From assembly GCA_016792625.1 (NCBI GenBank), contig JAEUKK010000159.1, positions 12,875-76,874 on the forward strand: a DNA stretch of 64,000 nt, in the 5' to 3' direction. Below are positions 419 to 28,988 of this stretch, in pieces. The stretch's first letter is position 1, and each line of letters starts with the position of its first letter. The notes under the pieces are model-generated. The model was not told the DNA's origin. It worked only from the letters and a program-made list of their open reading frames with translations, and searched no databases. A program made the position numbers and the translations under genes. The stretch comes from Deltaproteobacteria bacterium (GTDB lineage: Bacteria > Myxococcota_A > UBA796 > UBA2385).

Positions 419-3400
419 TCAGAGCGCGCTCGCGTCCACGCCGCCTGCGGGCTCGTCGAAGACAGCGTCGTACTCGGTGGAGTTGCGCTGTTGTTGCTCG
501 CGCAGGCGCTGGTCGAGGCCCTGGAAGAGGCCCGGGGCCGCCGCGGGCGCGGGGGCGCCGCGGGCGGGTCGACCGCCCCCGCCCTGCTGCAGCGGGCTGA
601 AGGCCACGTGCGGGCCCTGCCATGCGAAGACCTGCGAGCCGCCGGGCACCACGGCAACGCCGCGCGCGTCGGCCTTGGCCGCGACCAGCCCACCCGGGCC
701 CTGGGCCCGCAGCTCGGCGCCGGCCGCCGGCCCTCCGTCGCGCCGCAGCGCCACGCGCAGGCCGGCCGGGCCCTCCTCGGCGCTGAGCTGCAGCGCGCTG
801 ACCACGACCAGGGCCGCCGTCTCTTGCCCGCCGCCGCTGAGCTGCAGCCGCCAGGCGCCCGGGCCCGGGAGGCGCAGGCGCAGCTCCTCTTCGGCGACGT
901 AGGGGCCCGCCCGCACCCGCTCGCGGGCCGACCAGGCCGGGCTGACCCCCGCCACGGGCACGGTCAGCGCGCCGCTCAGCCCACCGTCGCGCAAGAAGAT
1001 GGTGCGCAGGTCGAGCGGGTAGGCCGTGATGGCCACCTCGTCGAGGTTGGCGAGCTGGACGGGCACCCGGACGTCGGGGCCCGGGCTGAACAGCAAGGGC
1101 GTCGAGGCCTCGAGCGTGGTGCGGCGCAGCAGGGCCGCGGCCTGGGCGGCCTCGGGGAAGCGCGCCCCCACCTCAGCGTAGGCCTCGGCGGCGGCGTCCA
1201 GCCGACCGGCCGCCTCGTGCAAGCGGGCGAGGCCATAGGCGGCGTCATGGGCCAGCGGAGAGGGGCCCCCGTACCCATCGCCCAAGGGCCACTGCCCGTC
1301 GCGCAGCTCGCGCAGGATGGCGCCAGCGGCGTGGTCTTGACCGAGCTCCAGCCGGGCGAGGGCCTCGGTGAAGCGCAGCGCGTCGAGCGCAGGGTCGGCG
1401 GGGTCGCCCTGGCCCACCTCGGCCGCCCAGCGGGCCGCCTCGGCCGGGGCGCCCAAGGCCAGCAGGCCGCGTGCGAGCTGAAAGCCCACCTGCACCCGCT
1501 CGGGCGCCTCGGGGTGCAGGGCGAGGAACTCGCGGTCCCAGGCGGCGGCGAGCAGGCGCAGGTCGGCGGCGCCCAGCCCCTCCCGCTGCAGCTCTTCGGG
1601 GGCGCCCGCGTCGGCCATGCGGCTCAGCTCCCCCGAGAGCAGCGACTCGGCCTCGACCACCGCCGGCAAGGCGGGTGAGCGGGCGGCCAGCTCCCGCATC
1701 AGGCGCAGGCCGAGCAAGGCGCCCAGCTGGCCTTCGACCTCGCGAATCGGCTGGGCTTCAGCCACAAACGCCGCGCTCAGCGCGGCGCGCTGCACCGTCC
1801 AGGCGCGGGAGAGCTGCCCGGCCTCGGCGTAGGCCGCGGCCACCGCCTGCACCTCGCCGAGGCCCAGGTGCGCGTCGGGCGCGGCGTCGCGCAGGGCCTC
1901 GAAGGCGGCGACCCGCTCGGCGGGGCCGGCGCCCGCGCTCGCGTCCCAGCGCAAGCGCATGACCTGGGCGCGCTCCTGGGCGGGCCAGGCGTCAAAGGCG
2001 GGCCAAGCGGACAGGGCCGGGCGCGGGTCTTGGCCCACGGCGGCTTGGGCGCGGGCGAGGGCCAGGGCCGCTGCGCGCTCCAGCGGGAGGGCCGCGGGCG
2101 CACCCGACGCGGGGTCGGCGGGCAGGGCGACGAGGTGCAGGGGCGCGGCGGGGACGGGCTGGCCGTCGGGCCCGGGCGCCCAGAGCCCGTCGAGGGTCCA
2201 GGCCCCGGGCTGGTCGGCCCGCAGCCCACCCGCGCTCGCCCGCAGCCCGGCCGGGAGGGCCAAGGGCAAGGGCCCGCTGGCCACTTGCACGACCAGCGCG
2301 TCACCTTCGCGCAGCACGCAGGGCTGGGTCGGGCCCCCGCAGGCCGGCGCGCGCCCCTCGCGGGCCCGGTGCTCGAGCAGCGGGGCGGCGAGGGGGCCGC
2401 CGAGGGGGCCGGCCGCGCGCCGCTCTGCCCAGAGGGCCGGCGCCGCGGGCGCAGCGGGCGCCACCTCCGCTCCGCGCTCGAGCAGGGCGGGGCCGCCGCG
2501 CAGCGCGACGACCGCGCCCGGGGGCAGCACCAAGCGCACCTCCCGTGTTTTGCCTGCGTCGAGCACGCCCTGCTCCACGCCGTTGACGAGCACCACGGTC
2601 GGCGCGCGGTCGGGCCGCAGGGCCCGGTCGGCGCTGGCGAGGCGCAGCAGCTCGACGGCTTCGGCCCGCAGGGGCGCGCCCGGGGGCGGCAGCGGGGCGC
2701 CCGCGCGGGCATAGGCGAGGGCAGGCCCGCGCGAGCCGAGGCGCGCCTCGAGCAGAACACTGAGCAGATCGCTGTCTCCGCGCAGGTTGGCGGGGACGGG
2801 GCGGCCCAGCGCGTGCAGGCAGAGGCCCAGCCGCGCGCGCTCCGCGGGCAGCAGCTGGTCGGACTCGCGCAGCAGCCGGCCCAGCGCGGGCTCGTCGACC
2901 GCCAAGCCGGCCACGGCCTGGGCCCAGAGCGCCGCCGCCCGCGCCCCGCTGCCATCCACGCTGCGCTCGACCGCCGCTGCCATGGCCTCGAGCGTGGCCC
3001 GGGCGACCGGCGGACCGCCGGGGAGGGCGGCCAGCCCGCCGGCCAAGGCCAGCTCTTCGACGGAGATCGCGCCGCCCGGGCGGCTGTGCGGCGGCGGCCC
3101 CCACAGCGCGGCGGCGATCTGGCGCAGATCGGCGGCGGCCAGGGCGCCCTCCGCTTCGGGCAGGCCGGGCAGCGCGGCCAACAGCGCCCGGCCCCGCGCG
3201 ACCAGCGCCGCCCGACCCTCCCGCGGCCCGAGCTCCTCCGCCGGCGGCCCCTCGGTCGCCACCGCCCACAAGGGCAGCCCGCCCGCCGCGCTGCGCCGCA
3301 CCCGCAGCAAGCGGCCGGCGGGGTCGGCGTGCTGGGGCGGCGCCACCGCCGCGCTGAGCAGCAGCGTGGAGAGGGTGCGCCCCTCCTCTTCGAGGCGCAG

Positions 3401-6400
3401 CGCCCGCTCCTCCCCCGCCCGCAGGGGAGAGGTCTGCACCAGCACCGCCTCCCCCGGGGCGAGGCGCAGCTCCCGCGGCGGGCCGTCGCCGATCAGCCGA
3501 AGCTGGCGGGGGGCCTCGCTGGGGTTGTGCGCCCAGACCTGGGGAGCGAGCTGGTCTTCGGGCCCGAGCTGCCCCATTGCCCCGGGGGTATAGGGCGCGA
3601 GGCCGGGCAGGAGCGGTTCGGCAGCCCCCGGCCCGTGCACGAGCAGGCGGGGCGCGGCCTCGGCCGGCAGGCGCAGCCGGGCCCAGCCCATCGCCGCCGG
3701 GCTGAGCGCGAGGGCCTCGACCACCACGCCCTCAGGCAGGCCATCCAGCGCGGGCAGGGGCACGCGCAGGCGGCCGTCCGGGTCGGTCTCGGCCACCACC
3801 CAGAGCAGGCGCGCGCGCCGGGCCACCGGGAAGCTGCGGCGCGTCGGCTCGCCGGCCCGCCCGCTGCCCACCGCGCCCGCGCTGCCAAAACCGCCCCCGC
3901 CCGAGCCATAGCCCGAGGCGCCCGAGCCTCGGCCCGTCGTGCCGATCGACCCGAGCAAGATCGGCTCCTGGCCGTCAAAGGCATCGGCCAGCGGCGTGTC
4001 GAGCAGCTCGCCGCGGGCCGCCGCGGCGGCGCGGGCCGCCTGCACCTCGCGCTCGGCCTCGGCCAGCAGGCCCGCGGCGATCGGCGCCGCGTGGGCCGCC
4101 GACCAGAGCGCGCCGCCCACCCCGGCGCCCCCGCCGGTGGGGCTGCCCCCCAGCCCGTGCAGGGTAGGCAGGCCGCGGCCGGGCAGCCGCGGGTCGTGGG
4201 CCCGCAGCGCGACCCGGGCGCGGGTGGGCCGCCCAGCGGCGTCGCGCACGCGCAGCTCGAGCGCGCCGTCGGCGCCCCGCTCCAGCCCGACCTGCAGGGC
4301 CGCCTGCACCTCGACCTCGACGGCGGCCGCCGTGCCGTCGGGGCGGGTCGCGACCAAGCCGAGCGCGCCGTCCACCGCCGGCAGCGGCAGGGCCACCCGC
4401 TGGGGCCCCGCGCCGAGCAGGCGCAGGCCCTCGGCGCCCACGCCCTCGAGGCTGAGCAGCGCGGGGCCGACCAGCTGGGCCTCGACCAACCCGCCCGCGG
4501 GCAAGGGGGCGCCCGCCGGGTGGAGCAGGCGCAGCCCCGGGCCGCGCGCCCCCGGCCCCGGCGGCAGGGGCAGGCGCAGCGCGGGGCTGCGGTCAGCGCT
4601 CACCCCCAGCTCGGGCACGAGGCTCAGCACCAGCTCACTATTTTCGGGCAGGTCGGCCAGCTCGAGCCCGCGCAGGTCGAGGGCCACCGCGCCGTCGGGG
4701 CCGAGGGTGAGCGGCAGCCGGCGCAGCAGGCGCAGGGGCGCGGCGGGCCCCTCGGGTTCGGGCTGCGCGCCGGCCCAGCCGGCCCCGGCCACAAAACCCT
4801 CGGGCGGGTCAAGGTCGGGGGGCTCTGGCGCCGGCGCGGGCGTGGGAGCCGGGGCGGCGACCGAGACGAGCAGGGTGTAGGCGCCGGCCGGGCCGCGCAG
4901 GTGCACGTCTGCGGCGTCACTCCCGACGAGCTGGGCCTCGATCTGCGGCGCGGCCGCCGCGGGGTCTGGGGCCCGGCCGGGGGCGCTCAGCCAGCTGCTC
5001 GCCGCGTCGGCGAGCTGGGCCTGCAGCCGCAGGGCGCCGCTCGCGGGCAGGGCCACCCGCCCATCGGGGCCCGTCCAGAGCACGGGGCTCGGATCAGGCG
5101 CGGTGGACGGGGCCTCGGCCCGCCGGGGGACCGCCCGCACCCGCACCGGAGCGCCGGCCACCGGCCGCCCGAGGCCATCGCGCACCCGCGGCTGGCCGCC
5201 GGCCCAGTCCAGCACCAGCCCATCGGCCGGCGTGGCGGGAGCGACCTGCACGGTGCCGATCACGACGGGCCGCTCCTCCCCCTCGACCTGGGCCCAGAGC
5301 TCGACCCCGACCTCGCGCAGGCCGGTGGGCAGCTGCAGGCGCAGGGCGAGGCCGCCGTCGGGCCCGAAGGTGCCACGCACGCTGGTGAAACGAGAGCGGT
5401 CATGCTGCAGCCAGACCTCGACCTCGCCGCGCAGGGGGCCCCGGCCCGGCTCACCCGGCCGTGGGCTGCTCGGCTGGCGCCGCCCCACGAGCAGCAGCTC
5501 GATCGGCTCGCCGGGCAGGTAGGCCGGGCGGTCGGTCTGGGCGAGCAGCTGCACCTCGGCGCCCTCCCCCGCCGTCGCGGGCCAGGCCACCTCGGCGAGG
5601 GCAGGACCGCGGGCGGTCATCGCCAGCACCTGCGCCTCACCTTCCGGCACGACGAGGCGCAGCAGGCCGTCGGGGCCGGTCCGGTGCTCCGCGACGCCCG
5701 CGCCCGTCCGCACCCAGACCGCGGCGCCGCGGGCGGGCTGGCCGCCGGCGAGCACCCCGATGAGCAGCTCTTCGCCCACCCCGCGCAGCAGCAGCTCGGC
5801 CTCGCCGTGCAGCAGCAGCACCTTGGCCTCGGTGGTCGGGGTGGCCGCGGTCAGGGCGTAGAGCCCAAAACCGGGCACGGGCACCTCGAGGGGCAGGCGG
5901 CGCTCGACCCCGGGCTGGCCGCCAGGCAGGGCCTGGGCCCACTCGGCGTCGGGGCGCACCACGCCGACGTCCAGCTGCTCCAGATCGGTGATCTGGCCAC
6001 CTGCCCGCAAGAGGGCCTCGGGGTCGATCGTGTGCAGGCGCAGGCTGAGCGCGTCGACGCCGCGGGCGCGCAGGCGGACCGTGGCCCGGCGGGCCGGGAG
6101 CGGGCCCGCGGGCGGGTCTTCGGGCCGGCGGCCGGCCTCGAGGTGCAGGCGGGGCTGGCGCAGGTCGGCGGCGAGGGCCGCGGCCGGGGCCCCGCCGGGG
6201 GCGGCGGCCAGGGCGTCGAGCCAGGCGAGGGCCGCCTCTCCGCCGTCGCGCGCCGCGCGGAGCTGGTGCAGGCCCCGCAGCGCGAAGTCGGGGTCGGCCC
6301 CATCGGCGAGCAGGGCGGCGAGCCGGGCCTCGGCCACCGCCGGGGGCGCCCGGTCTAGCGCGAGCGCGGCGGCCTCGACCGCGATCGCCGACCGGGCCGG

Positions 6401-11605: not shown

Positions 11606-13564
11606 GTGGCCGTGGCCGACCGCTCCGTCCGCACGCCGGTCCTGCTCGCCTTTCTGCTCTCGGTCGGGGCCTCGGGCGGCGCGCTGGCCTACACGGTGAG
11701 CCAGCTCGCCACGATCGGCGAGCGCCTCGACGCGCTCGACCGCAGCTACCTGCCGCTGGCCGCGGTCACCGCCGAGCTCGGCGCGCTGACCCGCCAGCTC
11801 GACCGCGAGCAGGCCCGCGGGGGTCGAGCCGGGGGCGCCTCGGCCCGCCGGGCCAGCGCCGCCTTCTTCTCCGCCGGGCTCAGCGCGGCGGTGCAGCGCG
11901 GCCACAGCATCGTCGACGCGGCCACCGCCGAAGCCGAGAGCCGAGAGGAGCGCACGGCCCTGGCCCTGCTCGACGCCCAGCTGCGCCAAGCCGACGAGGC
12001 CCGCGCCGCGTGGGAGGCCGCGGTCGAGGCCGAGCTCACCGCCGAAGCGGCATCCGAAGCCGCGCCTGCCTCTGGACCAACTGAGGGCAAAGCAGCGTCT
12101 GTGTCGTCGTCTTCGTCGTCCACCACCCCAACAACGGCGCCCGCCGCCGCGCCCGCCGGGGGGCCCCCAGCGAGCGAGGGGAGCGCCGCGCAGGGGGCCG
12201 CCCCGCCGGCCACGCCCGCCGAGCAGGCCCGGGCGCACCTCGTCGACCGGGTGGGCCGGCTCGCCGCCCTGGTCGAGGACCGCATCGAGACCTTGAGCGC
12301 GCGGGCCGCGCGGGCCCAGCGGCGCGCGACCGCGGTGGGCGGCGCGCTGGCCGGCATCTCGCTGCTGCTCAGCGGCCTGCTCTCGGTGGGCGCGCTCAAC
12401 ACGCTGCGGCCGGTCAGCGATCTCGTCGCCCAAGTGCTGCGCCAGCGGGCGGCGGCCACGCCCGGCCGGGTCGAGCTGCGGGCCGAGGGTGAGCTCGCCC
12501 TGCTCGCCCGCGAGTGGAACGCCATGGCCGAGGCCGTCTCGGAGCGAGACCGGCGCCTCAAGGAGCGCGCCGAGGTGCTCGACCGGCTGAGCCTGCGCCT
12601 GCGCAGCGTGCTCGACACCATCCAGGTCGGCATCGTGGTGGCCGAGGGCGGGGCGGCGGTGGTGGTCAACCCCGCGGCCCGCCGCCTGTTCATGGCCAGC
12701 GAGGGCGGGAACCTGCCCGCCGAGCTGCGCGGGCTGGGCGCCGGCCGGGTCGAGGCCCTGCCTGTGGCCGCCCGCCTCATCGACGTCGAGGTCGTGCCCT
12801 ATGGCCCGCGGGGGCTTCTTTTCGTCGGAGAGGACGTCACGGCCCGCATTCGCGACCGCGAGCGCCTCGCCCGCAGCGAGCGCCTGGCCCTGGTCGGCCA
12901 GATGCTCGCCCAGGTCACCCACGAGGTCCGCAACCCGCTCAACGCGATGAGCCTGCACGCCGAGATCTTGTGCGATGAGCTGACCGACGCCGAGCAGCTC
13001 GACATGATGCGGACGATCACCGGGGAGATCCGCCGGATTGAGGCGGTGACCGGCCGTTACCTCGAGCTGAGCCGGGGGAGGCGGCCCGAGCTCGGCCTCG
13101 CCGCGCCCGCCGCCCTCTGCGCCGAGGTGCTGCGGGTGGAGGAGGAGGCCTTACGCCGGGCGGGCCTGCGGGCCAGCCTGCGTACCTCAGGGCCCTCGGG
13201 GCCCGTCGAGCTGGACGCCGAGGCCCTGCGCCGGGCCCTGCGCAACCTGCTCAAGAACGCGGCCGAGGCCGGCGCCCACAGCGCCGAGGTCTGGGTGCAT
13301 ATCGACGAAGACAGCGTGCAGGTCGCTGTGTCCGACGATGGCCCAGGGATGGACCCCGAGACCGCCCGCCAAGCCTTCGACCCCTTCTACACCACCAAAG
13401 CCCAGGGCACGGGGCTCGGCCTGGCCATCACCCGCCAAGAGCTTGAAGAGGTCGGCGGTCAGATCAAGGCGATCCCCCAACCCGAGGGCGGCCTGCGCAT
13501 CGAGCTGAGCCTGCCCGCCGGCCCCGCCGCCCGCCGCGCCCTGCGCCGGGCCGAGGTGGGCTGA
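11606..13564 (+). CDS. Membrane sensor histidine kinase (HAMP/PAS-like, HisKA, HATPase)
   Basis: Two TM segments; H-box THEVRNPLN; N-box NLLKNAAEA; DDGPGM; FDPFYTTK; GTGLGL. Confidence 0.92.
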   Translation: MAVADRSVRTPVLLAFLLSVGASGGALAYTVSQLATIGERLDALDRSYLPLAAVTAELGALTRQLDREQARGGRAGGASARRASAAFFSAGLSAAVQRGHSIVDAATAEAESREERTALALLDAQLRQADEARAAWEAAVEAELTAEAASEAAPASGPTEGKAASVSSSSSSTTPTTAPAAAPAGGPPASEGSAAQGAAPPATPAEQARAHLVDRVGRLAALVEDRIETLSARAARAQRRATAVGGALAGISLLLSGLLSVGALNTLRPVSDLVAQVLRQRAAATPGRVELRAEGELALLAREWNAMAEAVSERDRRLKERAEVLDRLSLRLRSVLDTIQVGIVVAEGGAAVVVNPAARRLFMASEGGNLPAELRGLGAGRVEALPVAARLIDVEVVPYGPRGLLFVGEDVTARIRDRERLARSERLALVGQMLAQVTHEVRNPLNAMSLHAEILCDELTDAEQLDMMRTITGEIRRIEAVTGRYLELSRGRRPELGLAAPAALCAEVLRVEEEALRRAGLRASLRTSGPSGPVELDAEALRRALRNLLKNAAEAGAHSAEVWVHIDEDSVQVAVSDDGPGMDPETARQAFDPFYTTKAQGTGLGLAITRQELEEVGGQIKAIPQPEGGLRIELSLPAGPAARRALRRAEVG

Positions 13565-16292: not shown

Positions 16293-17954
16293 ATGGCCGG
16301 TGCCGCGGTGAGCGCCCCGCCCAGCGCGCGGGGGCCCGACGCCCCGGCGGCACTGCTCCAGGTCGAGCTCGACAAGGCCGAGGGCGTCAAGGCCGGCGGG
16401 ATGGCCCTGCTCATCGCCGTCGGCATCCTGCCCATCTTCGTGTTGATGCGCACCGTCGGTGGTTTCGTCGACCGGGTCGCCGCCCGGCCCGGCGTGGTGG
16501 CCGCGGTGCTCGGCCTCTCGGTGGTCATGTTCGCCATCGAGGCCACCGCCTGGTGGACGGTGCGCCGCGAGACCCGGGCGGGCCGCCGCCTCTCGCGCTG
16601 GCCGGGCCGCCTGCTCGTCGCGCTCGAGGCGATGGCGCCGACCCTCGTGTTGGTCCTGATCGGGGCCTTTTTGCCGGGTGAGCACGCCCTGACCGCGCCC
16701 CAGCTGCTGCTCTACGCCGTGTTCATCGGGCCGAGCGCGGTGCGCCTCGACCCCGGCCTGAGCCTGCTCTCGGGTGTGCTCGCCGCGGGCTCCTACGCGG
16801 TCGTCGCGGGCGCGCTGCTGTCGGCGGGGCGGGTCGACCACCCGCTGGAGCAGGACCTCGCCACCCACGCCATGCGGGTGCTCTACCTGTTGATGACCGG
16901 CGGAGCAGCGGCATTTGTCGCCGCCCAGCTGCGCCAGCGCTTCACCGCGGCCCTGCAGGCCAGCGCCGAGCGCGCCCGGGTGGTGCACATCTTTGGCCGT
17001 TATCTTCACGATGACGTGGTGGACCATCTTTTGCATGACCCCGACGGCCTGCGCCGGGGCGGCGAGCGCCGCACCTTGACCGTGATGATGACCGACCTGC
17101 GCGGCTTCTCGAGCCTCGCCGAGGGCCTGCCGCCCGAGCGGGTGGTCGCCCTGCTCAACCACTACCTGGGCGAGATGGTGCCGGTCGTGCTCGAGAACGG
17201 CGGCACCATTGACGAGATCATCGGCGACGCCCTGCTGGTCATCTGGAACGCCCCCGCCGACCAGCCCGACCACGCCCGCCGGGGGCTGCGCTGCGCGATC
17301 GGCCTGCAGCAGCGCATGGCCGCCGTAAACGCCTGGACCGCCGCCGCGGGCCTGCCCGCGCTCGAGATGGGCATCGGCCTGCACACCGGCGAGGCGGTGG
17401 TGGGCAACATCGGCGCCGACCAGCGCCAAAAGTACGGCGTGGTGGGCACCACGGTGAACCTCGCCGCCCGGGTCGAGTCGGCCACGGTCGGCGGGCAGGT
17501 GCTGGCCACCGCCGCCACCCTCGCCCAGGCCGGCGAGGGCCTGCAGCTCGGCGCGCGGCGGAGCCTGCGCCCCAAGGGCAGCGCCGCGCCCATCGAGGTG
17601 GCCGAGCTGCTCGGCCTCGACGGCCAGCGCCTGCCCGGCGCCGACGAGACCCTGTCGCCCGCCCCACCCCAGGCCCTGCGCCTGCGCGCCGTGCGCGGCA
17701 AGGAGCTCGACGCCGAGGCCATCGAGGCCCTGCTGCGCGCCGCGGGCCCCCGCCGCCTCGTGGTCCAGCTCGCCGCCCCACAGCCCGAGGTCGACGACGT
17801 GCAAATCGAGCACAACGGCGCGGTCGCCTACGCCCGCCTGAGCCCCGAGGGCCCCGACACCGCGCTGCTGCGCCTCACCTCCGCGGCCGGTGCCGCCGCC
17901 CTGCGGGCGGCCGGCCTCGCGCTGCCCGCCGATCCGACAACTGCAACACATTGA
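16293..17954 (+). CDS. Membrane class III nucleotidyl cyclase, possibly guanylyl cyclase, with C-terminal extension
   Basis: Multi-TM N-terminus; MTDLRGFS, GGTIDEIIGDAL, GIGLHTGEAVVGNIG, KYGVVGTTVNLAARVE. Confidence 0.92.
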   Translation: MAGAAVSAPPSARGPDAPAALLQVELDKAEGVKAGGMALLIAVGILPIFVLMRTVGGFVDRVAARPGVVAAVLGLSVVMFAIEATAWWTVRRETRAGRRLSRWPGRLLVALEAMAPTLVLVLIGAFLPGEHALTAPQLLLYAVFIGPSAVRLDPGLSLLSGVLAAGSYAVVAGALLSAGRVDHPLEQDLATHAMRVLYLLMTGGAAAFVAAQLRQRFTAALQASAERARVVHIFGRYLHDDVVDHLLHDPDGLRRGGERRTLTVMMTDLRGFSSLAEGLPPERVVALLNHYLGEMVPVVLENGGTIDEIIGDALLVIWNAPADQPDHARRGLRCAIGLQQRMAAVNAWTAAAGLPALEMGIGLHTGEAVVGNIGADQRQKYGVVGTTVNLAARVESATVGGQVLATAATLAQAGEGLQLGARRSLRPKGSAAPIEVAELLGLDGQRLPGADETLSPAPPQALRLRAVRGKELDAEAIEALLRAAGPRRLVVQLAAPQPEVDDVQIEHNGAVAYARLSPEGPDTALLRLTSAAGAAALRAAGLALPADPTTATH

Positions 17955-19922: not shown

Positions 19923-21608
19923 GTGCCCCACGCTGAGCTGCCCGTCACCGCGCCCGCCGACGAGGATGGCGCGCTGCTCCTCGACGGGAACACCCTCCAG
20001 TTCGCTGACCTCGTCGAGGTCGCCCGTTTTGGCCGCCCCGTCCGCCTGCACCCCGAGGCCCGGCGGCGCATGGCGGCCTCGGCGGCCTGGGTCCAGGCGG
20101 CCGGCGCGGGTGACCAGACCGTCTACGGCGTCACCACCGGCTTTGGCTCGCTGGCCCGGGTGAACATCGCGGCCAAAGACCGGGCCCTGCTCTCGCTCAA
20201 CCTCATCCGCTCGCACGCGGCCGGGGTGGGCGCACCCCTGCCCGTGCCCGCGGTCCGCGCGATGATGCTGCTGCGCGCCAACGCCCTGAGCAAGGGCGCC
20301 TCGGGCTGCCGCCCGCTGCTGGTCGACACCCTGCTCGCCATGCTCAACGCCGGCCTGACCCCGGTGGTGCCGGCCCAGGGCAGCTGCGGCTCCTCGGGTG
20401 ACCTCGCCCCGCTGGCCCACCTCGGCCTCGTGCTCGCCGAGGGCAGCGGCGGCGGCCGGGCCGTGCTGCGGGGCGAGGAGCTCGACGCCGGCGAGGCGAT
20501 GGCCCGCGCCGGCCTGCAGAAGGTGCGCCTCGAGGCCAAAGATGGCCTCGCCATCACCAATGGCGCGCAGCTGACCACGGGCATCGCCGCCCTGTGCTGC
20601 TGGGACGCCGACCTGCTCGCCCAGGCCGCCGAGGCCGCCGCGGCGATGAGCTTTGACGCCCTGCGCGGCTGCACCCGGGCCCTGCACCCGGCGGTGCACC
20701 AGCTGCGGCCCTACCTGGGCGCCCAGCAGACCGCGGCCAACCTGCGCCGCCTGCTCACCGGGAGCGCCCTGGTCGACAGCGTTCCGGGCAAGGTGCAGGA
20801 CGCCTACGCCCTGCGCTGCGCGCCCCAAGTGCTCGGCGCCTGCCGCGACAGCCTGCGCTTCGCCGCCAGCCAGGTCGCGGTCGAGCTCAACGCGGCCACC
20901 GACAACCCCCTGATCTTGATGAACGCCGGCCCGATGGACGAGGGCTTCCCCGATGACCCCTCGAATCGGGCCTACAGCGCGGGCATGTTCCACGGCGAGC
21001 CGGTGGGCATGGCGATGGACACGCTGAAGATCGCCGCCGCCGAGATCGCCAGCCTGTCCGAGCGGCGGCTGTACCGCCTGACCACCGGCCTGCTGAGCCA
21101 GCGCCTCCCCCCGGGCCTCGCGCGGGCCGACCGCCCCAACCTCGGCCTGATGCTCCCCCAGACCACCGCCGCGGCGCTGGTCAGCGAGAACAAGGCCCTG
21201 GGCTGGCCCGCCAGCATGGACAGCATCCCCACCTGCGAAGATCAAGAAGATCACGTGGCGATGAGCACCACCGCCGCCCGCCGCGCCGCCGCCGTGCTCG
21301 AGAACAGCCGCCGGGTCGTCGCCATCGAGCTGCTCGGCGCCGCGCACGCCCTGGCCATGCGCCGCGAAGAAGAGCCCGGGGTGCGGCTCGGCGCGGGCAC
21401 CGGCGCCTTGCTCGACCAGCTCAGCGCCCTGCCCGGCGCGCTCTCGACCGATGGCGCGCCGGCCGAGGCCATCGCCGCCATCGACGGCCTGCTCGTGGCC
21501 GACGACTGGCGCGCCGCCTTGCCGGCCCTGCTGCCGGTCGGGCCGGTCGACCGCCCCTTGCGCCGCGCCTTCGAGAGCGCCCCGCAGCACGTCGAGGTGA
21601 GCCGATGA
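19923..21608 (+). CDS. hutH: Histidine/aromatic ammonia-lyase family, MIO-competent subunit (SSG triad)
   Basis: VYGVTTGFGSL inner loop; LIRSHAAGVG; GSCG-SSG-DLAPLAH; VQDAYALRC; TDNPL; QEDHVAM. GAGGAG RBS, GTG start. Confidence 0.85.
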   Translation: MPHAELPVTAPADEDGALLLDGNTLQFADLVEVARFGRPVRLHPEARRRMAASAAWVQAAGAGDQTVYGVTTGFGSLARVNIAAKDRALLSLNLIRSHAAGVGAPLPVPAVRAMMLLRANALSKGASGCRPLLVDTLLAMLNAGLTPVVPAQGSCGSSGDLAPLAHLGLVLAEGSGGGRAVLRGEELDAGEAMARAGLQKVRLEAKDGLAITNGAQLTTGIAALCCWDADLLAQAAEAAAAMSFDALRGCTRALHPAVHQLRPYLGAQQTAANLRRLLTGSALVDSVPGKVQDAYALRCAPQVLGACRDSLRFAASQVAVELNAATDNPLILMNAGPMDEGFPDDPSNRAYSAGMFHGEPVGMAMDTLKIAAAEIASLSERRLYRLTTGLLSQRLPPGLARADRPNLGLMLPQTTAAALVSENKALGWPASMDSIPTCEDQEDHVAMSTTAARRAAAVLENSRRVVAIELLGAAHALAMRREEEPGVRLGAGTGALLDQLSALPGALSTDGAPAEAIAAIDGLLVADDWRAALPALLPVGPVDRPLRRAFESAPQHVEVSR

Positions 21609-23122
21609 GCGCCGCCGCCCTGCCGCTGTACCACCGCGAGGCCCGCGGCCCGCTGGCCGGCGCCCCCACGGTCACCCTGCGCCCCGGCGCCCTGCCCTTA
21701 GAAGACCTGATCGCCGTGGCCCACGGCGCTCCCGTCGAGGTTGACCCCGAGGCGCGCGCCGCCTTGCGCGGCTGGGACGGCCCCGTGCTGCGCGACAAAC
21801 GCCAGTGGCTGGTCGGCGCCCACGCCGCCGCCCACCCCGAGGCCGACCTGCCCCGGCTGTTCATCCTCGGGCACTGCGCGGGCGTCGGCGCGCCCCTGCC
21901 CCGCGAGGTCGTGCGCGCGGCGATCGCCGCCCGGGCCCAGGTGCTGCTGCAGGGCTGCTCTGGGGTGCGCCCCGCCTGTGTGGACGTGCTGGTCGACATG
22001 CTCAACGCGGGCCTGCACCCCGTCGTGCCCGCCCAGGGCTCGGTGGGCGCGGCGGGTGACCTCGCGCCGATGGCCCACGTGGCCCGGGTGGCGGCGGCCC
22101 TCGACGGCCCCATCCCCGGCCTGCGGCCCTTCTCTCCGACCCAAAAAGAGGCGCTGGCGCTGATCAACGGCGTCAGCCTCTCCTGTGCGCTCGCCGCGGT
22201 GGCGATCAGCCGGGCCGAGCGGGTGCTCTCCGCCGCCGTCGAGGCCGCCGCGATGAGCCTCGAGGCCCTGCGCGCGGCCCCCGGCTGCCTCGACCCGCGG
22301 GCGCTGGGCCTGCGCGGCCACCCCGGCGTGGCCCAGGTGGGCGCGGCCCTGCGGGCCCGCCTCGAAGGCAGCACCCTGGTCGTCGAAGGCAGGCCGCCTG
22401 ACGCTTTTTCGGTGCGCTGCGCCCCCCAGGTTTTGGGCGCGGCGGTCGACGCGGCGGCCAGCGCCCGGGCGGTGGTCGAGGCCGAGCTGGGCGCCGTCTC
22501 TGACAACCCGCTCTGCCTCTGGCCCGCGGACGGCGGCCCTCCCGCGCTGATCGAGGCGGGGAACTTCCACGGCGCCAGCCTCGGCTTGGCCATGGACCAC
22601 CTCAAAGCTGCGCTGACCCAGGTGGCCACGATTAGCGAGCGGCGCACCTTCCGCCTGACCTATGGGCAGCTCAGCTCTGACCTGCCGAGCTTCCTCGTCC
22701 CCGGCACCGGCCTGAACTCGGGCTTCATGCTGGCCCAGTACACGGCGGCCAGCCTGGCCAGCGAGTGCAAGGGCCTCGCCCACCCGGCGAGCGTCGACAG
22801 CATCCCCACCGTGCAGCACCACGAAGACCACGTGAGCATGGCCCCGATCGCCGCCCGCACCGCGCTCATGCTCATCGAGTGCGTGGCCGACATCGTGGCC
22901 ATCGAGGCGATGTTGGCGGCGCAGGCCCTCGACCTGCGCCAGCGTGGCCTCGGCGAGGGCGGCGGGCAGATCGCCCCGGCCATCGAGGCCCTGCGCGCCC
23001 AGGTGCGCGCCGTCGTCCACTTCTGGGAAGACGATGGGGTGATGCACCCCGAGCTCGCCGCCGCTGGCGCTCTTTTGCGCGCCGGGGGCCTGGGCGCGGG
23101 GCCGGCTGCCGCGCCCTGGTGA
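21605..23122 (+). CDS. Second ammonia-lyase paralog lacking the MIO serine (AAG) and the catalytic Tyr loop
   Basis: GSVG-AAG-DLAPMAH; KEALALING; SDNPL; GNFHG; NSGFMLAQYTAASL; EDHVSM. No YGxxTGFG; ATGA overlap with the upstream gene. Confidence 0.85.
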   Translation: MSAAALPLYHREARGPLAGAPTVTLRPGALPLEDLIAVAHGAPVEVDPEARAALRGWDGPVLRDKRQWLVGAHAAAHPEADLPRLFILGHCAGVGAPLPREVVRAAIAARAQVLLQGCSGVRPACVDVLVDMLNAGLHPVVPAQGSVGAAGDLAPMAHVARVAAALDGPIPGLRPFSPTQKEALALINGVSLSCALAAVAISRAERVLSAAVEAAAMSLEALRAAPGCLDPRALGLRGHPGVAQVGAALRARLEGSTLVVEGRPPDAFSVRCAPQVLGAAVDAAASARAVVEAELGAVSDNPLCLWPADGGPPALIEAGNFHGASLGLAMDHLKAALTQVATISERRTFRLTYGQLSSDLPSFLVPGTGLNSGFMLAQYTAASLASECKGLAHPASVDSIPTVQHHEDHVSMAPIAARTALMLIECVADIVAIEAMLAAQALDLRQRGLGEGGGQIAPAIEALRAQVRAVVHFWEDDGVMHPELAAAGALLRAGGLGAGPAAAPW

Positions 23123-23307: not shown

Positions 23308-24252
23308 TTAGATGACCGCGCGCAGGCGCCCGAGGGCCCCGACCTCGATCTGGCGCACGCGCTCGCGGCTCAGGCCCATCGACTTGCCGATGTCGGCCAT
23401 GGTGCGGGCCTCGACGCCCTCGAGCCCGTAGTGGTTGACCAGGATGTAGCGCTCGCGGTCATCGAGCACCTCGCCGAAGGCCCCGCGCACGAGGCCCAGC
23501 GCCTGGGTCTTCATCGCGTTGTTGTCAGGGTTGATGTCGCGGCCCTCGGCGGCGAGGCGGTCGCCCACGCAGAGGCCGTCATCATCGGGCTGGTCGATGC
23601 TGACCACGCCGCCCTGGGCGAGCAGCAGCTGGGCGCGGGCGCGCTCGACGCCCACCTCTTCGGCGAGGTCGTCGAGGGTCCAGTCTTCGCCCATGCGGTC
23701 GAGGCGCTCGGCGGCCTGCTGCAGGTTGCGGATCTGCTCGACCGCCCCGCCCGGCAGGCGCACCATGCGGCCCGAGGTCTCGAGCGCGCGGGTCATCTGG
23801 GCCCGCACCCACCACCGCGCGTAGGTCGAGAAGCGGATGCCGCGGTCGGGGTCGAAACGTTTGGCCGCGCGCAGAAGGCCGATGTAGCCCTCTTGCACAA
23901 GGTCCTCTTCGCTCATCAGCGAGCAGGCCAGCTTGCGGGCCTCGCCGCGGGCGATGCGGCGGGCGGACATCCCGAGCTCCCACCGCAGGGACTCGGCATC
24001 GGCCAACTTCTGGTGGGCCTTGGTCACGTCGCCGCGGATGCTCGGGTCGGTCTTGGCGATCACCGCGCAGGCCTCGACGGCCTCGATCAGGCGATCCACC
24101 GCGCCGGCGCGGGTGCGCTCGGTGCGGGTCGGCCGCCGGCGCAGAACCCGCTCAGCCTCGTCAATCCCGGCGATGGCCTCGCGGGCCTCGCGCTCAGCGA
24201 CGCGGATGCGGTGGGCGAGATCGCGCTCTTCTTCGGCGGAGATGCGGAGCAT
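23308..24252 (-). CDS. Alternative sigma-70 factor (regions 1.2-4, no region 1.1)
   Basis: EDLVQEGYIGLLRAAKRFDPDRGIRFSTYARWW; RMVRLP; TMADIGKSMGLSRERVRQIE; GGAGG before ATG 24252. Confidence 0.93.
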   Translation of the reverse strand: MLRISAEEERDLAHRIRVAEREAREAIAGIDEAERVLRRRPTRTERTRAGAVDRLIEAVEACAVIAKTDPSIRGDVTKAHQKLADAESLRWELGMSARRIARGEARKLACSLMSEEDLVQEGYIGLLRAAKRFDPDRGIRFSTYARWWVRAQMTRALETSGRMVRLPGGAVEQIRNLQQAAERLDRMGEDWTLDDLAEEVGVERARAQLLLAQGGVVSIDQPDDDGLCVGDRLAAEGRDINPDNNAMKTQALGLVRGAFGEVLDDRERYILVNHYGLEGVEARTMADIGKSMGLSRERVRQIEVGALGRLRAVI

Positions 24253-24357
24253 AGGGCCCTCCATCGGTGGGCGCGCGGGGCGCCCGGGGCTGGGTTGAGG
24301 CACAAGAGAGGAGCAGGCGCGGGGAAGAGGGGGCGCAGGGCGCGGCGTGCCAGTTCA

Positions 24358-24518: not shown

Positions 24519-25901
24519 ATGGACATCACGCTCCCCGAAGACAACCTCTCCGCCCTGCTCAGCAACCCGCTGGTCGTCGGCCTGCTTGACCAGATCAGCG
24601 ATGGGGCGGTCGTCATCGACGTGAGCAGCCGGCGCATCTTGGCGATGAACCGCCGCGCCCGGCAGCTGCTCGGGGCCAGCGAAGATGAGGTGAGCGGCGC
24701 GCTCTGCCGCGAGGCGCTCAACTCGCCGCTGTGCAAGCCGGCCTGCCTGCTCACCGAGGGCCTGCGCGCCGAGGGCCGGGCCGAGGCCGGCTGCGCGCCG
24801 CGGGAGTCCGAGGTCTTTTACCGGGGCCGCGAGGGCGCCCCGCTGCTGCACGCCCGGGCGCGCATGATCGTGGTGCGGGCCCCCGATGGCCGGCCGATCG
24901 CCGGCATCGAGATGTTCTCCGACCTCACCGAGACCCGGCGCCTCGAGAAGGCGCTCGGCGACCGCCGCAGCCTGCACGGGATCATCGGCCAGGCCCCACC
25001 GATGCAGCGCCTCTACGAGCTGCTCGAGCAGGTCGCGCCCTATGACCTGCCCGTGCTGATCACCGGCGAGAGCGGCGTGGGCAAAGAGCGGGTGGCCGAC
25101 GCGCTGGTGGGCCTGTCCGACCGCGCACGCAAGCCCTACGTCAAGGTGAATTGTGCCGCGTTGAACCCAAGCTTGGTCGAGAGTGAGCTGTTTGGGCACC
25201 GCCGCGGCGCGTTCACCGGCGCGGTGGCCGACCGCCGGGGCAGTTTTGAAGAGGCCCACGGCGGCACGCTGCTGCTCGACGAGCTGGGCGAGCTGCCGCT
25301 CTCGCTGCAAGCCAAGCTGCTGCGCGTCATTCAGCAGGGTGAGCTGCAGCGGGTGGGCGAAGACCGCCCGCGCACGGTCGACGTGCGGGTGATCGCGGCG
25401 ACCAACCGCGACATCGAAGCCGACGTCCAGACGGGCCACTTCCGCGAGGACCTCTACTACCGCCTCGCCGGCGTGCGCCTGCACGTGCCCCCGCTGCGCG
25501 AGCGCAAGGGCGACCTGCCGCTGCTGGCCGAGCACTTCCTGCACCGCTTCGCCGACGAGGCCCGCCAGCGCGGCCGCGCCAAAACCACGCCGGGCCTGCG
25601 CGCCGACGCCCTGGCCGAGCTGGTGGGGCGCGACTGGCGGGGCAACGTGCGCGAGCTCGAGAACGTCCTGCGGCTGGCCTTTATCCGCGTGCCCGAGGGC
25701 GCGCTGATCGGGCCCGATCATGTGGCGGCGCCGACCAGCCGCCCGAGCGCCGAGCCCGAGCCGGTCTCGCTGCAAGAGCTTGAGAAGCGGGCGATCCAGC
25801 GCGCGATGGACCAGTCCGAGGGAAACATGGCCGCCGCCGCGCGCCTGCTCGGGGTCGACCGCACGACGCTGTGGCGCAAGCTGCGGCGCGGCGAGGGCTG
25901 A
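24519..25901 (+). CDS. Sigma-54 enhancer-binding protein with Cys-motif PAS domain (OrpR-like)
   Basis: PAS-like N-terminus with C-x8-C-x3-C; GESGVGKE, ESELFGH..GAFTGA, LLLDE, WRGNVRELEN; Fis-type HTH AARLLGVDRTTLWRKL. Confidence 0.93.
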   Translation: MDITLPEDNLSALLSNPLVVGLLDQISDGAVVIDVSSRRILAMNRRARQLLGASEDEVSGALCREALNSPLCKPACLLTEGLRAEGRAEAGCAPRESEVFYRGREGAPLLHARARMIVVRAPDGRPIAGIEMFSDLTETRRLEKALGDRRSLHGIIGQAPPMQRLYELLEQVAPYDLPVLITGESGVGKERVADALVGLSDRARKPYVKVNCAALNPSLVESELFGHRRGAFTGAVADRRGSFEEAHGGTLLLDELGELPLSLQAKLLRVIQQGELQRVGEDRPRTVDVRVIAATNRDIEADVQTGHFREDLYYRLAGVRLHVPPLRERKGDLPLLAEHFLHRFADEARQRGRAKTTPGLRADALAELVGRDWRGNVRELENVLRLAFIRVPEGALIGPDHVAAPTSRPSAEPEPVSLQELEKRAIQRAMDQSEGNMAAAARLLGVDRTTLWRKLRRGEG

Positions 25902-26963: not shown

Positions 26964-28988
26964 GTGCGCCGCGCCGCCGCGCTCTGCGTGGGCCTGCTCG
27001 GGGCCGCGCGCCCCGCCCAGGCCGACCCGAGCGGGGCGACGGCCCCCGAGGCCACCCCTGATGGCTCTGAGCCTGGCGAGACCATCGTCGTGACCGGGTC
27101 GCGCGCCCCCGAGACCCGCCGCGGGGCGGTGGTGCGCACCACGGTCATCACCCGCGACGAGATCACGCGCTCGGGCGCGGGCAACCTCGCCGACCTGCTC
27201 GAGCAGCAGGCGGGGCTGCAGCTCGTGCGCGGCCTGCGCGGCGCGAACCTGAGCCTGCAGGGCATGTCTCCCGACCATGTGCTCGTGCTCATCGACGGCC
27301 AGCGGGTGGCCGGGCGCGTGGATGGCGCGATCGACCTCAGCCGCATCCCCACCGGGGGCGTCGAGCAGGTCGAGATCGTGCGCGGCCCGGCCTCCACCCT
27401 CTACGGCGCCGACGCGATGGGCGGCGTGATCAACATCATCACCGCGCAGCCGCCCCGCGGCCCCGCGCTCTCCTCCTCCGCCGAGCTGGGGGCGCCGCTG
27501 ACCGCGGCCGCCACCTCCTCTGCGGGTCTGCCTCTGCCGCTCGGTCCCACCGGCGGCCACGCCCACGCCTCGGTCGGGCGCGGCGCCAGCCGGTGGGGTC
27601 AGCGGTTCGGGGCCTCGGCCCAGCAGCTCCCGGCCTTCGACCTCGATCCGGGCGATGTGGCCACCAGCGCCGACGCCCAGGCCCAGCTCGAGCTGACCGG
27701 CCAGGTCTGGCACCGGCCCAACGAGGCCCAGCGGTGGACGCTGCGGGGCAGCGCGCTGCGCCGGCGGGCCCAGGGCGTCGACAGCGCCGAGACCGGCGCC
27801 GTCTACGACCGCCGCCACCTCACCGAGACCGTGGGCCTGAGCCTCGGCCCGACCCTGCGCCTCGGGGCCGACACCCAGCTGCAAATCACGAGCTGGACGA
27901 GCTTCTTCCGCGATCAATACCTGCTCGACCAGCGGGGCGCGACCGCCGAAGACGCCTACCAAGACACCCGCGACCTGTGGACCGAGCTCGACCTGCAGCT
28001 CGACCACGCCGCGGGCCCGAGCCACCTGCTCACCGCCGGCCTCGAGGGCGCCCGCGAGGCCCTGTGGACCGACCGCCTCGCCGGCGGGCAGGCCGACCGC
28101 CTGCGCGGGGCCGCCTTCGCCCAGCACACCTTCCGCCCGGCCGCCGCCCCCCGCCTGTCGACCGCGGCGGGCCTGCGCCTCGACCACGACACCCAGTTCG
28201 GCCAGGCCCTCTCACCAAAGGTAGCGATCAAGCTCGACGCCACCTCGGCGCTGGCCCTGCGCCTCTCGGGCGGCTGGGGCTACAAGGCGCCCGACTTCAA
28301 AGACCTCTACATCCGCTTCGCCAACCCCACCGCCAATTACGCGGTGGAGGGCAACCCCGCGCTGCGCCCCGAGCGCGCGCTCGGCGCCAACCTCGCCGCC
28401 GACTGGTTCGGCCCCCGCGGGCTCGCGCTGGGCCTCGAGGGCTACGGCCAGCGGGTCACCGGGCTCATCCAGCCGGCGCTGACCAGCGCGGCCAGCGCCG
28501 GGCAGGCGGCCCGCTACTCCTACGTCAACGTCGCCGAGGCGATCACCGCCGGGGCGCAGGCCGACGCCCGGGCCCGGCCGGCGCCCTGGGCCTGGGGGCA
28601 GGCGGGTCTCAGCTACGGGTGGACCGTGGACCGCGCCGAGGGCCGCCCCCTCGCCAACCGCCCCACCTGGATGGCCACCGCGAGCGCCGGGCTCGAGCGC
28701 CCCGCGGCGGGCCCCGCGCTGGACGCCCGCCTGGGTTTTGTCGGCGCGCGCCCGCTCTATGAAGATGACGACGGCGACGGTGTGGAAGACACGGTGATCG
28801 CCCCGTCGACCCTCAACCTCGACGCGCGGCTGCGCTGGCGCTGGCCGGGCGGCGGCGCGGTCTGGCTCGGCGCCGAGAACCTGCTCAACGCCGGTGATGC
28901 GGTCGCCTCACCGCTGCGGCCCCGCCAGCTGGTTGTCGGCGCCTCGGGCGGCCTGCCGCGCCTGCAGCGCACGCAACCCTCCCCCTGA
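26964..28988 (+). CDS. TonB-dependent outer-membrane (heme) receptor
   Basis: TonB box ETIVVTGSR; plug VLIDG, VEIVRGPASTLYGADAMGGVINIIT; YKAPDF..LY, GNPALRPE, GAENLLN. Confidence 0.93.
   Translation: MRRAAALCVGLLGAARPAQADPSGATAPEATPDGSEPGETIVVTGSRAPETRRGAVVRTTVITRDEITRSGAGNLADLLEQQAGLQLVRGLRGANLSLQGMSPDHVLVLIDGQRVAGRVDGAIDLSRIPTGGVEQVEIVRGPASTLYGADAMGGVINIITAQPPRGPALSSSAELGAPLTAAATSSAGLPLPLGPTGGHAHASVGRGASRWGQRFGASAQQLPAFDLDPGDVATSADAQAQLELTGQVWHRPNEAQRWTLRGSALRRRAQGVDSAETGAVYDRRHLTETVGLSLGPTLRLGADTQLQITSWTSFFRDQYLLDQRGATAEDAYQDTRDLWTELDLQLDHAAGPSHLLTAGLEGAREALWTDRLAGGQADRLRGAAFAQHTFRPAAAPRLSTAAGLRLDHDTQFGQALSPKVAIKLDATSALALRLSGGWGYKAPDFKDLYIRFANPTANYAVEGNPALRPERALGANLAADWFGPRGLALGLEGYGQRVTGLIQPALTSAASAGQAARYSYVNVAEAITAGAQADARARPAPWAWGQAGLSYGWTVDRAEGRPLANRPTWMATASAGLERPAAGPALDARLGFVGARPLYEDDDGDGVEDTVIAPSTLNLDARLRWRWPGGGAVWLGAENLLNAGDAVASPLRPRQLVVGASGGLPRLQRTQPSP

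Follow-up and report, generated by a model that had tools for sequence, protein, structure and literature searches.

Can a single enzyme of the histidine ammonia-lyase (HAL) family be put together from two different gene products, one of which has lost the residues that do the chemistry? The question is raised by two adjacent genes, here called g1 and g2, in a stretch of 64,000 nucleotides (about 75% G+C) from a Deltaproteobacteria bacterium of the phylum Myxococcota_A. We call this whole stretch the window; it covers positions 12,875 to 76,874 of contig JAEUKK010000159.1 (C117) in the 7.26-Mb assembly GCA_016792625.1, which is 92% complete. The product of g1 looks like an ordinary HAL, whereas that of g2 lacks the serine needed for the methylidene-imidazolone (MIO) cofactor and both catalytic tyrosines. 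We found that the pair is a conserved, co-inherited module and no local oddity, and that g2 is under purifying selection. On balance, we favour the reading that the two products would form one heteromeric histidase of the histidine utilisation (Hut) pathway, in which g2 would be a non-catalytic subunit that completes the active sites of g1 in trans.

Anatomy of the two genes

A first, sequence-only reading of the window had described two full-length genes of the HAL fold that overlap by an ATGA. All its coordinates proved correct (Table 1): the two genes lie on the same strand, the Pfam family PF00221 spans the full length of both, and the G+C content at third codon positions (GC3) marks both frames as coding. 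As paralogs, the two products are 33-43% identical in pairwise comparisons, and the closest solved relative of both is the HAL of Pseudomonas putida (E 5.9e-97 for g1 and 3.6e-73 for g2). A promoter scan found no sigma-70-like site, and the terminator-like matches were unconvincing. RNA-library contigs from two studies, belonging to a relative of about 95% identity, span the junction of g1 and g2. Note that these contigs document presence in RNA libraries, which is compatible with co-transcription; neither a single transcript nor an expression level follows from them.

Table 1. The gene pair and its motifs, in positions of the window (aa, amino acids; nt, nucleotides)
Feature	Position	Strand	Description	Basis or conservation
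g1	19923..21608	+	HAL-type subunit, presumed catalytic, 561 aa, GTG start	PF00221 E 4.7e-165; GC3 0.95
g2	21605..23122	+	HAL paralog without MIO and without the Tyr loop, 505 aa	PF00221 E 2.8e-122; GC3 0.93
ATGA	21605..21608	+	start/stop overlap of g1 and g2	direct sequence reading
GAGGTG	21594..21599	+	Shine-Dalgarno-like hexamer within the last codons of g1, 5 nt upstream of the g2 ATG	direct sequence reading
g1 Tyr loop YGVTTGFG	20124..20147	+	Tyr68 aligns with P. putida HAL Tyr53	Tyr68 and Gly69 invariant in 37 of 37 g1
g1 S-H	20211..20216	+		motif read in translation
g1 Ser-Ser-Gly (S157-S158-G159)	20391..20399	+	presumed MIO precursor	
g1 QDAY	20796..20807	+	Gln277/Tyr280 equivalents, then Arg298	Q292, Y295 and R298 invariant in g1
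g1 loop 395-414	21105..21164	+	equals P. putida HAL 367-386, including Met382	relaxed in g1
g2 DKRQWLV	21794..21814	+	where the Tyr loop is deleted; alignment with P. putida HAL leaves a gap of 8 residues	K65 invariant, R66 nearly so (40 g2)
g2 Ala-Ala-Gly (A149-A150-G151)	22049..22057	+	replaces the MIO triad	translation; homologue strings
g2 PDAF	22397..22408	+	Gln277 to Pro, Tyr280 to Phe; Arg271 kept	F268, S269 and R271 invariant
g2 loop 360-379	22682..22741	+	equals P. putida HAL 367-386, including Met382	almost invariant
g2 QHHEDHVSM	22814..22840	+	Glu414 loop, fixed version specific to g2	Q404 to H409 invariant

Aligned with P. putida HAL, g1 has the equivalents of Tyr53, His83, Asn195, Gln277, Tyr280, Arg283, Phe329 and Glu414, all of them invariant in 37 g1 sequences. 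It scores 550 bits against PF00221, passes the NCBIfam model NF006871 for histidine ammonia-lyase (534.9 bits, cut-off 524) and falls slightly below the cut-off of the equivalog TIGR01225 (524.9 and 539.15, respectively). Presumably, then, g1 encodes a complete HAL whose triad is able to form MIO. Its other motifs read GMFHG, NLGLMLPQ and EDHVAM. The loop 395-414 varies at positions 398, 400-402, 406 and 409-411 in the same 37 sequences; the position of Met382, a residue that together with its loop is a specificity element of HAL, is Met410 in the g1 of the window and is occupied by Met in 21 of them, by Leu in 9, by Ile in 4 and by Phe in 3.

The sequence-only reading had placed all of the g1 motifs correctly, but it had called the Ser-Ser-Gly triad non-standard, and this part did not stand. 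The triad is ordinary, because 15 of the 149 parsed best representatives of the family at 50% identity carry it, 13 of these together with the Tyr loop. It also occurs in P0123, a longer match in which a single HAL domain follows an unrelated N-terminus. As the triad is common among canonical HALs, we no longer regard it as a special feature of this locus. A search for named triad variants found none.

For g2, the earlier description (Ala-Ala-Gly, no Tyr loop, PDAF, GNFHG, NSGFMLAQ and EDHVSM) was accurate in every element. The gap in the alignment with P. putida HAL falls exactly on the Tyr loop, and g2 stays below both NCBIfam cut-offs for HAL (411.1 against 524 for NF006871, 396.4 against 539.15 for TIGR01225). 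In the loop 360-379, 13 of the 20 positions are identical in 40 of 40 g2 sequences and 6 more in at least 35 of the 40; only position 366 varies freely. The AlphaFold2 (AF2) model of the g2 monomer has a predicted local distance difference test (pLDDT) value of 88.8 and a predicted template modelling (pTM) score of 0.91, with residues 399-408 below pLDDT 50.

These properties are shared by a family. The best 120 homologues of g2 are 53-94% identical to it and come mostly from metagenome-assembled genomes (MAGs) of Myxococcota or 'Deltaproteobacteria'. In the homologues a K-R-x-W-L segment replaces the Tyr loop and Phe replaces Tyr280, while the equivalents of His83, Asn195, Asn328/Phe329 and Glu414 are 91-100% conserved. 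The possibility, raised by the sequence-only reading, that close homologues carry Ala-Ser-Gly was not borne out: none does, and G-A-A-G stands in each of the eight commonest strings at the triad site, which together account for 120 of the 121 sequences (g2 among these). Clustered at 50% identity, the family is compact, with about a dozen representatives followed by a sharp drop in score to the canonical enzymes.

In a divergent subclade (loci L066-L068, L072, L076 and L079), the g2 triad reads Val-Gly-Gly, or Ala-Ala-Gly followed by Ser where Asp is normal. The triad region of g2 has decayed further at these loci, and the partner g1 reads YGVNTGYG instead of ending in GFG.

The ratio of non-synonymous to synonymous substitution rates (dN/dS) in ten ortholog pairs lies between 0.054 and 0.249 for g2 and between 0.037 and 0.26 for g1. 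On these values g2 is not decaying, which was the second way in which the sequence-only reading had thought its proposal might fail. Together with the intact frame, the GC3 value and the large conserved family, they led us to reject a decaying pseudogene. A laboratory counterpart of g2 can be found in RxPAL, a phenylalanine ammonia-lyase (PAL), where the exchange of the triad Ser for Ala (S153A) abolishes MIO absorbance and activity (PMC3903478). The Ala-Ala-Gly of g2 would be the natural equivalent of this MIO-null mutation; unlike the mutant, g2 is a natural protein under purifying selection, and it has undergone further losses.

We wanted to know how the losses are divided between the two genes. 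For this we counted over the 106 alignment columns with a conservation of 90% or more among 24 canonical HALs: both genes keep 55 of them, 12 are lost only in g1, 26 only in g2 and 13 in both. With g1 residue 330 as the dividing line, 2 of the g1-only losses lie before it and 10 after, as against 24 and 2 of the g2-only losses (Fisher p = 8e-6, a value that takes the columns as independent and uses a cut picked after the data had been seen). What g2 has lost is the Tyr loop, the MIO Ser, Gln277 and Tyr280. Lost or relaxed in g1 are Asn328, Phe370, Gly376, Ser379, Met382, Ser418 (a fixed Ala) and a C-terminal Arg/Asp. Mean conservation over unselected columns is 0.74 in g1 and 0.64 in g2 for the N-terminal part, 0.70 and 0.73 for the C-terminal part, and 0.73 and 0.89 for the segment g1 393-415. 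The complementary conservation that had been claimed from a few motifs is thus confirmed by the column counts. At the level of aligned residues, the losses are complementary and spatially segregated, with g1 relaxed in C-terminal loops and g2 in the N-terminal catalytic parts.

Could g2 nevertheless be an enzyme in its own right? The sequence-only reading had offered two sequential enzymes as an alternative, and g2 might be an active, MIO-independent enzyme that works before, after or beside g1 on a histidine derivative, for instance hercynine, ergothioneine or another betaine. True enzymes without MIO do exist in the family: ergothionase (6S7J) and, from Shewanella, the lyases of histidine betaine and of N(pi)-methyl histidine betaine lack Ala-Ser-Gly just as g2 does (bioRxiv 10.64898/2026.04.22.720169), and the strong conservation of g2 is what one would expect of an active protein. 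However, the same preprint describes these trimethylammonia-lyases as all keeping the Tyr that removes the beta-proton and as acting on trimethylammonium substrates. They act alone and need a trimethylammonium leaving group, whereas g2 has its Tyr loop deleted, has Phe in place of the second Tyr, and always has a MIO-type paralog as partner. Furthermore, g2 is far nearer to P. putida HAL than to ergothionase (6s7j, E 2.6e-30), it is nested in the tree with the HALs of its own order, and no betaine-pathway gene is found among the conserved neighbours. Considering also that hutU and hutI are encoded elsewhere in a genome with no other HAL, we hold a separate activity of g2 to be very unlikely, and the scheme of two sequential enzymes is not supported.

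Inheritance of the pair and its probable place in the Hut pathway

We collected loci in two ways. With the g2 alignment as query we scanned genomes, one per species, and kept the best 80 of 93 confirmed loci; with the g1 alignment we scanned metagenome contigs, which returned another 80 loci. A g1-type gene (54-97% identical to g1) lies directly upstream of g2 in 74 of the 80 genome loci, and all 73 of the upstream genes that could be parsed have Ser-Ser-Gly and the Tyr loop. One further locus (L078) begins inside g2. The remaining five (L028, L036, L037, L039 and L069) contain no g1; each of the five genomes has an unlinked g1 with Ser-Ser-Gly and all other hallmarks of g1. The expectation that Ala-Ala-Gly copies always stand next to a Ser-Ser-Gly copy is therefore correct for the 74 loci and too strict for these five, in which the partner is found elsewhere in the genome.

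Seen from g1, a g2 gene follows downstream in 60 of the 62 informative metagenome loci (59 recognised by motif, L195 by tblastn); in the other two, L175 and L189, about 2.9 kb downstream of g1 are without g2. The 18 remaining loci end inside g1 or at most 400 nt past it, and when four of these were searched by tblastn, the start of g2 was found in three (L165, L167 and L184). The overlap between the genes is equally regular, being -4 in 55 and -8 in 8 of the 63 parsed genome pairs (62 loci and the window), and -4 in 42 and -8 in 9 of 59 metagenome pairs. The two genes also diverge together: their pairwise distances correlate with r = 0.90 (63 pairs), and g2 evolves slightly faster (1.15-fold), being the more divergent of the two in 97% of the comparisons.

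To see how far the pair is distributed, we searched 401 genomes of the phylum and called a match g2-type at E <= 8e-96 and at least 50% identity. Such matches occur in 42 of the 61 genomes of the window's order, its own genome counted, and in none of the 340 other genomes, where the best match (2e-91) is a canonical Ala-Ser-Gly enzyme. Every one of the 42 pair-bearing genomes shows two or more HAL matches; in the 40 with exactly two, the pair constitutes the only HAL-family genes. Ten genomes of the order without the pair were inspected and have a single canonical HAL with Ala-Ser-Gly or Ala-Cys-Gly, or a longer Ala-Ser-Gly protein; in two genomes without the pair (G056 and G112) the canonical HAL gene adjoins hutU. 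Of 121 genomes of the order, 111 encode urocanase; among the 42 pair-bearing ones, 41 do. Judged by gene content, the pair takes the place of the single canonical hutH across one Myxococcota order.

The genome of the window follows the same pattern. The pair provides its only two PF00221 genes, while hutU lies on C74 and hutI on C192, both above the cut-offs. The earlier statement that neither gene is in the window is true, and neither was found in any of the 80 genome loci. Because hutU and hutI are encoded elsewhere in a genome with no other HAL, histidine is the simplest substrate to assume, and the simplest function would be the plain conversion of histidine to urocanate for a dispersed Hut pathway.

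Where did the pair come from? We calculated a maximum-likelihood tree (quick search, LG+G4) of 156 sequences, namely 63 g1, 63 g2, 5 solo g2 copies and 25 canonical HALs of the same phylum, with one long-branch row (L120) retained. All g1 sequences form one clade (SH-aLRT 100), and so do g2 and the solo copies (100), the five solo copies being one derived clade within g2. Both groups cluster with three single-copy HALs of the window's order (100), apart from other Myxococcota HALs; inside this cluster, the branching order of g1, g2 and the single-copy enzymes has support 0. The topology fits an origin of the pair from a duplication of the order's own hutH, which would have been followed by complementary degeneration.

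Two observations concern the single-copy enzymes of the order. The nearest of them (L095, L096 and L097, from genomes G072, G332 and G257) carry Ala-Cys-Gly for Ala-Ser-Gly, a natural Cys variant of the MIO triad; the Tyr loop reads YG.NTGIG in L095 and L097, and the N-terminus of L096 is cut. In four other genomes without the pair (L098-L101, from G202, G242, G292 and G167), an open frame of 686-894 aa encodes an Ala-Ser-Gly protein of the HAL family; its match to g1 is split into two segments that lie apart, and an inserted domain may be the reason.

One heteromeric enzyme or two separate proteins

According to a paper on GkHAL (PMC11432326), three monomers together form a HAL active site, and bacterial HALs share the Met as a conserved residue. 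A finer picture is given for AvPAL in a preprint (bioRxiv 10.1101/2021.06.06.447205): the positions nearest to the substrate of chain A are 268, 294, 306, 400 and 494 in chain B, and 407, 533 and 534 in chain C. Position 400 and the Tyr314 loop act from the adjacent chain, 407, 533 and 534 from the third, and 102, 218, 222, 360 and 453 in their own chain. We mapped these positions to g1 and g2 by approximate offsets from shared motifs. By this mapping, and with the help of the literature on PAL and tyrosine ammonia-lyase (TAL), the region relaxed in g1 (about 398-410 and the C-terminus) would comprise the elements that serve the site of a neighbour. In the AF2 model of g2, the Met is the third residue of a helix that starts straight after the loop 360-379, and for this reason we infer that it travels with the loop.

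In the heteromer that we favour, g1 would carry the chemistry, with a MIO that arises from Ser-Ser-Gly, a base of the Tyr53 type and the equivalents of Gln277, Tyr280 and Arg283. As a catalytically dead paralog made by coupled translation, g2 would join it in a mixed tetramer, most simply of two plus two chains with two live sites, and would give the loops that each HAL site borrows from its neighbours, that is, the equivalent of 367-386 with Met382, and C-terminal residues. The Gln/Tyr/Arg loops, invariant in g1 but lost from g2, would be exchanged between the two g1 chains, and a g2 loop that is invariant in g2, and whose g1 counterpart has relaxed, would close each g1 site. The corresponding loops of g1 itself may have drifted because they would point into the dead pockets of g2.

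Binding was assessed by a complex prediction with g1 (18-500) and g2 (20-500) and purpose-built alignments. The score is 0.47 (runs of 0.47, 0.49 and 0.04), compared to 0.00 for the best control; in the calibration, 58 of 80 solved complexes attained the mark, as did 2 of 110 mismatched pairs, and 7 of those 80 complexes as well as both mismatches attained it at scores of 0.60 or less. The runs agree in at least 9% of contacts, and the pLDDT of the partner is at least 82. The prediction weakly supports binding of g1 and g2. Since homologous homotetramers have been solved, it shows likeness rather than binding, and the score may stem from those known structures. The tetramer of two g1 and two g2 chains proposed in the sequence-only reading has gained strong comparative support, from co-occurrence, overlap, selection, complementary loss and the replacement of hutH, while the support for physical binding is weak.

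Several points weigh against a heteromer. The case for binding comes from the prediction just described, with one of its three runs near zero. The assignment of residues to cis and trans leans on the distant AvPAL, on rough offsets, on the secondary structure of a g2 monomer model and on the PAL and TAL literature, and the Fisher test of the N- and C-terminal split is subject to the limits given with it. The coupling is not obligatory, since g1 and g2 are unlinked in five genomes, and 2 of 62 g1 loci are without g2 within 2.9 kb. None of 9 longer matches is a fusion of g1 and g2, which is weak evidence. For hutG and hutF, only sub-threshold matches were found in the 92% complete genome of the window. 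Furthermore, Glu414 is retained in g1, as is the Met in the copy of the window, and g1 might function on its own. Finally, g2 keeps the cis residues of its own dead pocket, which a pure donor role would leave unexplained.

As these pocket residues are retained, there is room for a ligand-binding, possibly regulatory role of g2. A tentative possibility is an order-wide obligate heteromer, derived from a homotetrameric MIO enzyme through duplication and complementary decay, in which the g2 pocket, completed by the invariant Gln/Tyr/Arg loop of g1, would bind histidine or urocanate as an allosteric site, so that the enzyme would be a half-of-sites histidase regulated by its ligand.

On the other hand, g1 may be a self-sufficient homotetrameric histidase, with g2 as a separate or loosely mixed non-catalytic protein (a sensor of histidine or urocanate, a buffer or a regulator). 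The presence of every canonical catalytic residue in g1 agrees with this, as does the conservation, at 91-100%, of the residues of g2's own pocket (the equivalents of His83, Asn195, Arg283, Phe329, Met382 and Glu414); the unlinked genes in five genomes and the weak support for a complex speak in the same direction. However, a homotetramer needs its own Met382 loop, and it is left unexplained why the relaxed loops of g1 are just those that g2 has kept, and why the start/stop overlap is near-universal. In addition, no sampled genome has a g1-type gene alone. We consider this arrangement unlikely.

How does a heteromeric histidase compare to what is known? The classical HutH (P. putida HAL, PDB 1B8F/1GKM; EC 4.3.1.3) shares its fold and PF00221 with both genes, and its triad Ser-Gly, Tyr loop and equivalents of His83, Asn195, Gln277, Tyr280, Arg283, Phe329 and Glu414 are matched in g1, which likely has the same substrate and pathway. 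HutH, however, comes from a single gene and forms a homotetramer whose four sites are identical, whereas here there are two diverged paralogs, of which g2 is without MIO and both Tyr, and g1 has relaxed the equivalent of loop 367-386 and conserved C-terminal residues. Active mixed tetramers of paralogous MIO-enzyme subunits are reported to exist among tobacco PAL1-4, in work ascribed to Reichert et al. in 2009; the plant PAL isoforms are said to be all catalytically competent and to form homotetramers as well. In contrast to these, the present pair combines complementary losses with one partner that appears constitutively dead, and this points to obligate pairing.

In the literature that we reached, MIO enzymes (HAL, PAL, TAL and aminomutases) are treated as homotetramers, and full-text searches, with subscription journals largely outside their reach, returned no description of a dedicated MIO-less partner subunit. 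If the reading as a heteromer is true, the conserved pair of a catalytic and a dead subunit would be a natural model for the change from a homomer to an obligate heteromer, for MIO active-site elements that act in trans, and for the question of whether half of the sites suffice. There is also a practical side: automatic annotation labels both proteins as 'histidine ammonia-lyase' or 'aromatic amino acid lyase', a name that is wrong for g2 and would lead the reconstruction of pathways astray in these Myxococcota, which are abundant in freshwater and wastewater.

Neighbouring genes

Around the pair, the window encodes an adenylate/guanylate cyclase-domain protein (16293-17954), a sigma-70 family factor (23308-24303), a PAS/sigma-54 activator (24519-25901) and a TonB-dependent receptor (26964-28988), which are without evident link to histidine metabolism. 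As candidate operon partners, these neighbours recur among the 80 genome loci only in the nearest relatives, L003 and L004. Neighbours that are shared within other subclades (an epimerase, unknowns, a lipoprotein-like open reading frame (ORF) and a PfaA-like synthase) resemble lineage synteny, and we rejected them as conserved operon partners.

Such neighbours could also be taken as a hint at secondary metabolism, with the pair making urocanate or another acrylate that feeds, for example, a downstream polyketide synthase or a synthase of the polyunsaturated fatty acid type. A KS-AT-ACP-KR synthase does lie downstream in about 22 of the 80 loci, and other neighbours are common to 18-26 loci. 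All of these are confined to subclades, none occurs in the window or in its closest relatives, and there is no CoA ligase or loading enzyme among the shared neighbours. Since 41 of the 42 genomes with the pair encode urocanase and 40 of them have no other HAL, we regard a role in secondary metabolism as highly improbable.

The PfaA-like multidomain synthase (KS-AT-ACPs-KR) is exemplified by L061:9590-17506, with about 21 other loci. In the lineages that have it, a NAD epimerase and FG-GAP or acidic-repeat proteins lie upstream of the pair, which is probably lineage synteny. An ORF of about 237 aa with a lipoprotein-like N-terminus overlaps the start of g1 by 4 nt in about 20 of the 80 loci, all in one subclade (L047:5786-6499 and equivalents); neither Pfam nor NCBIfam gave a match for it, and it did not turn up in the genome of the window. 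Further away in the window, the first codon positions of a 1,559-aa open frame (1679-6358, + strand) are 94% G+C, and the frame matches no Pfam family; its product may be a low-complexity protein rich in Gly, Ala and Pro, or the frame may be no gene at all. Finally, several MAG records with a Myxococcota-type pair (L028, L041, L051, L055 and others) are titled Klebsiella pneumoniae, Bifidobacterium breve or Enterobacterales, and the submitter taxonomy of these lake and wastewater bins looks unreliable.

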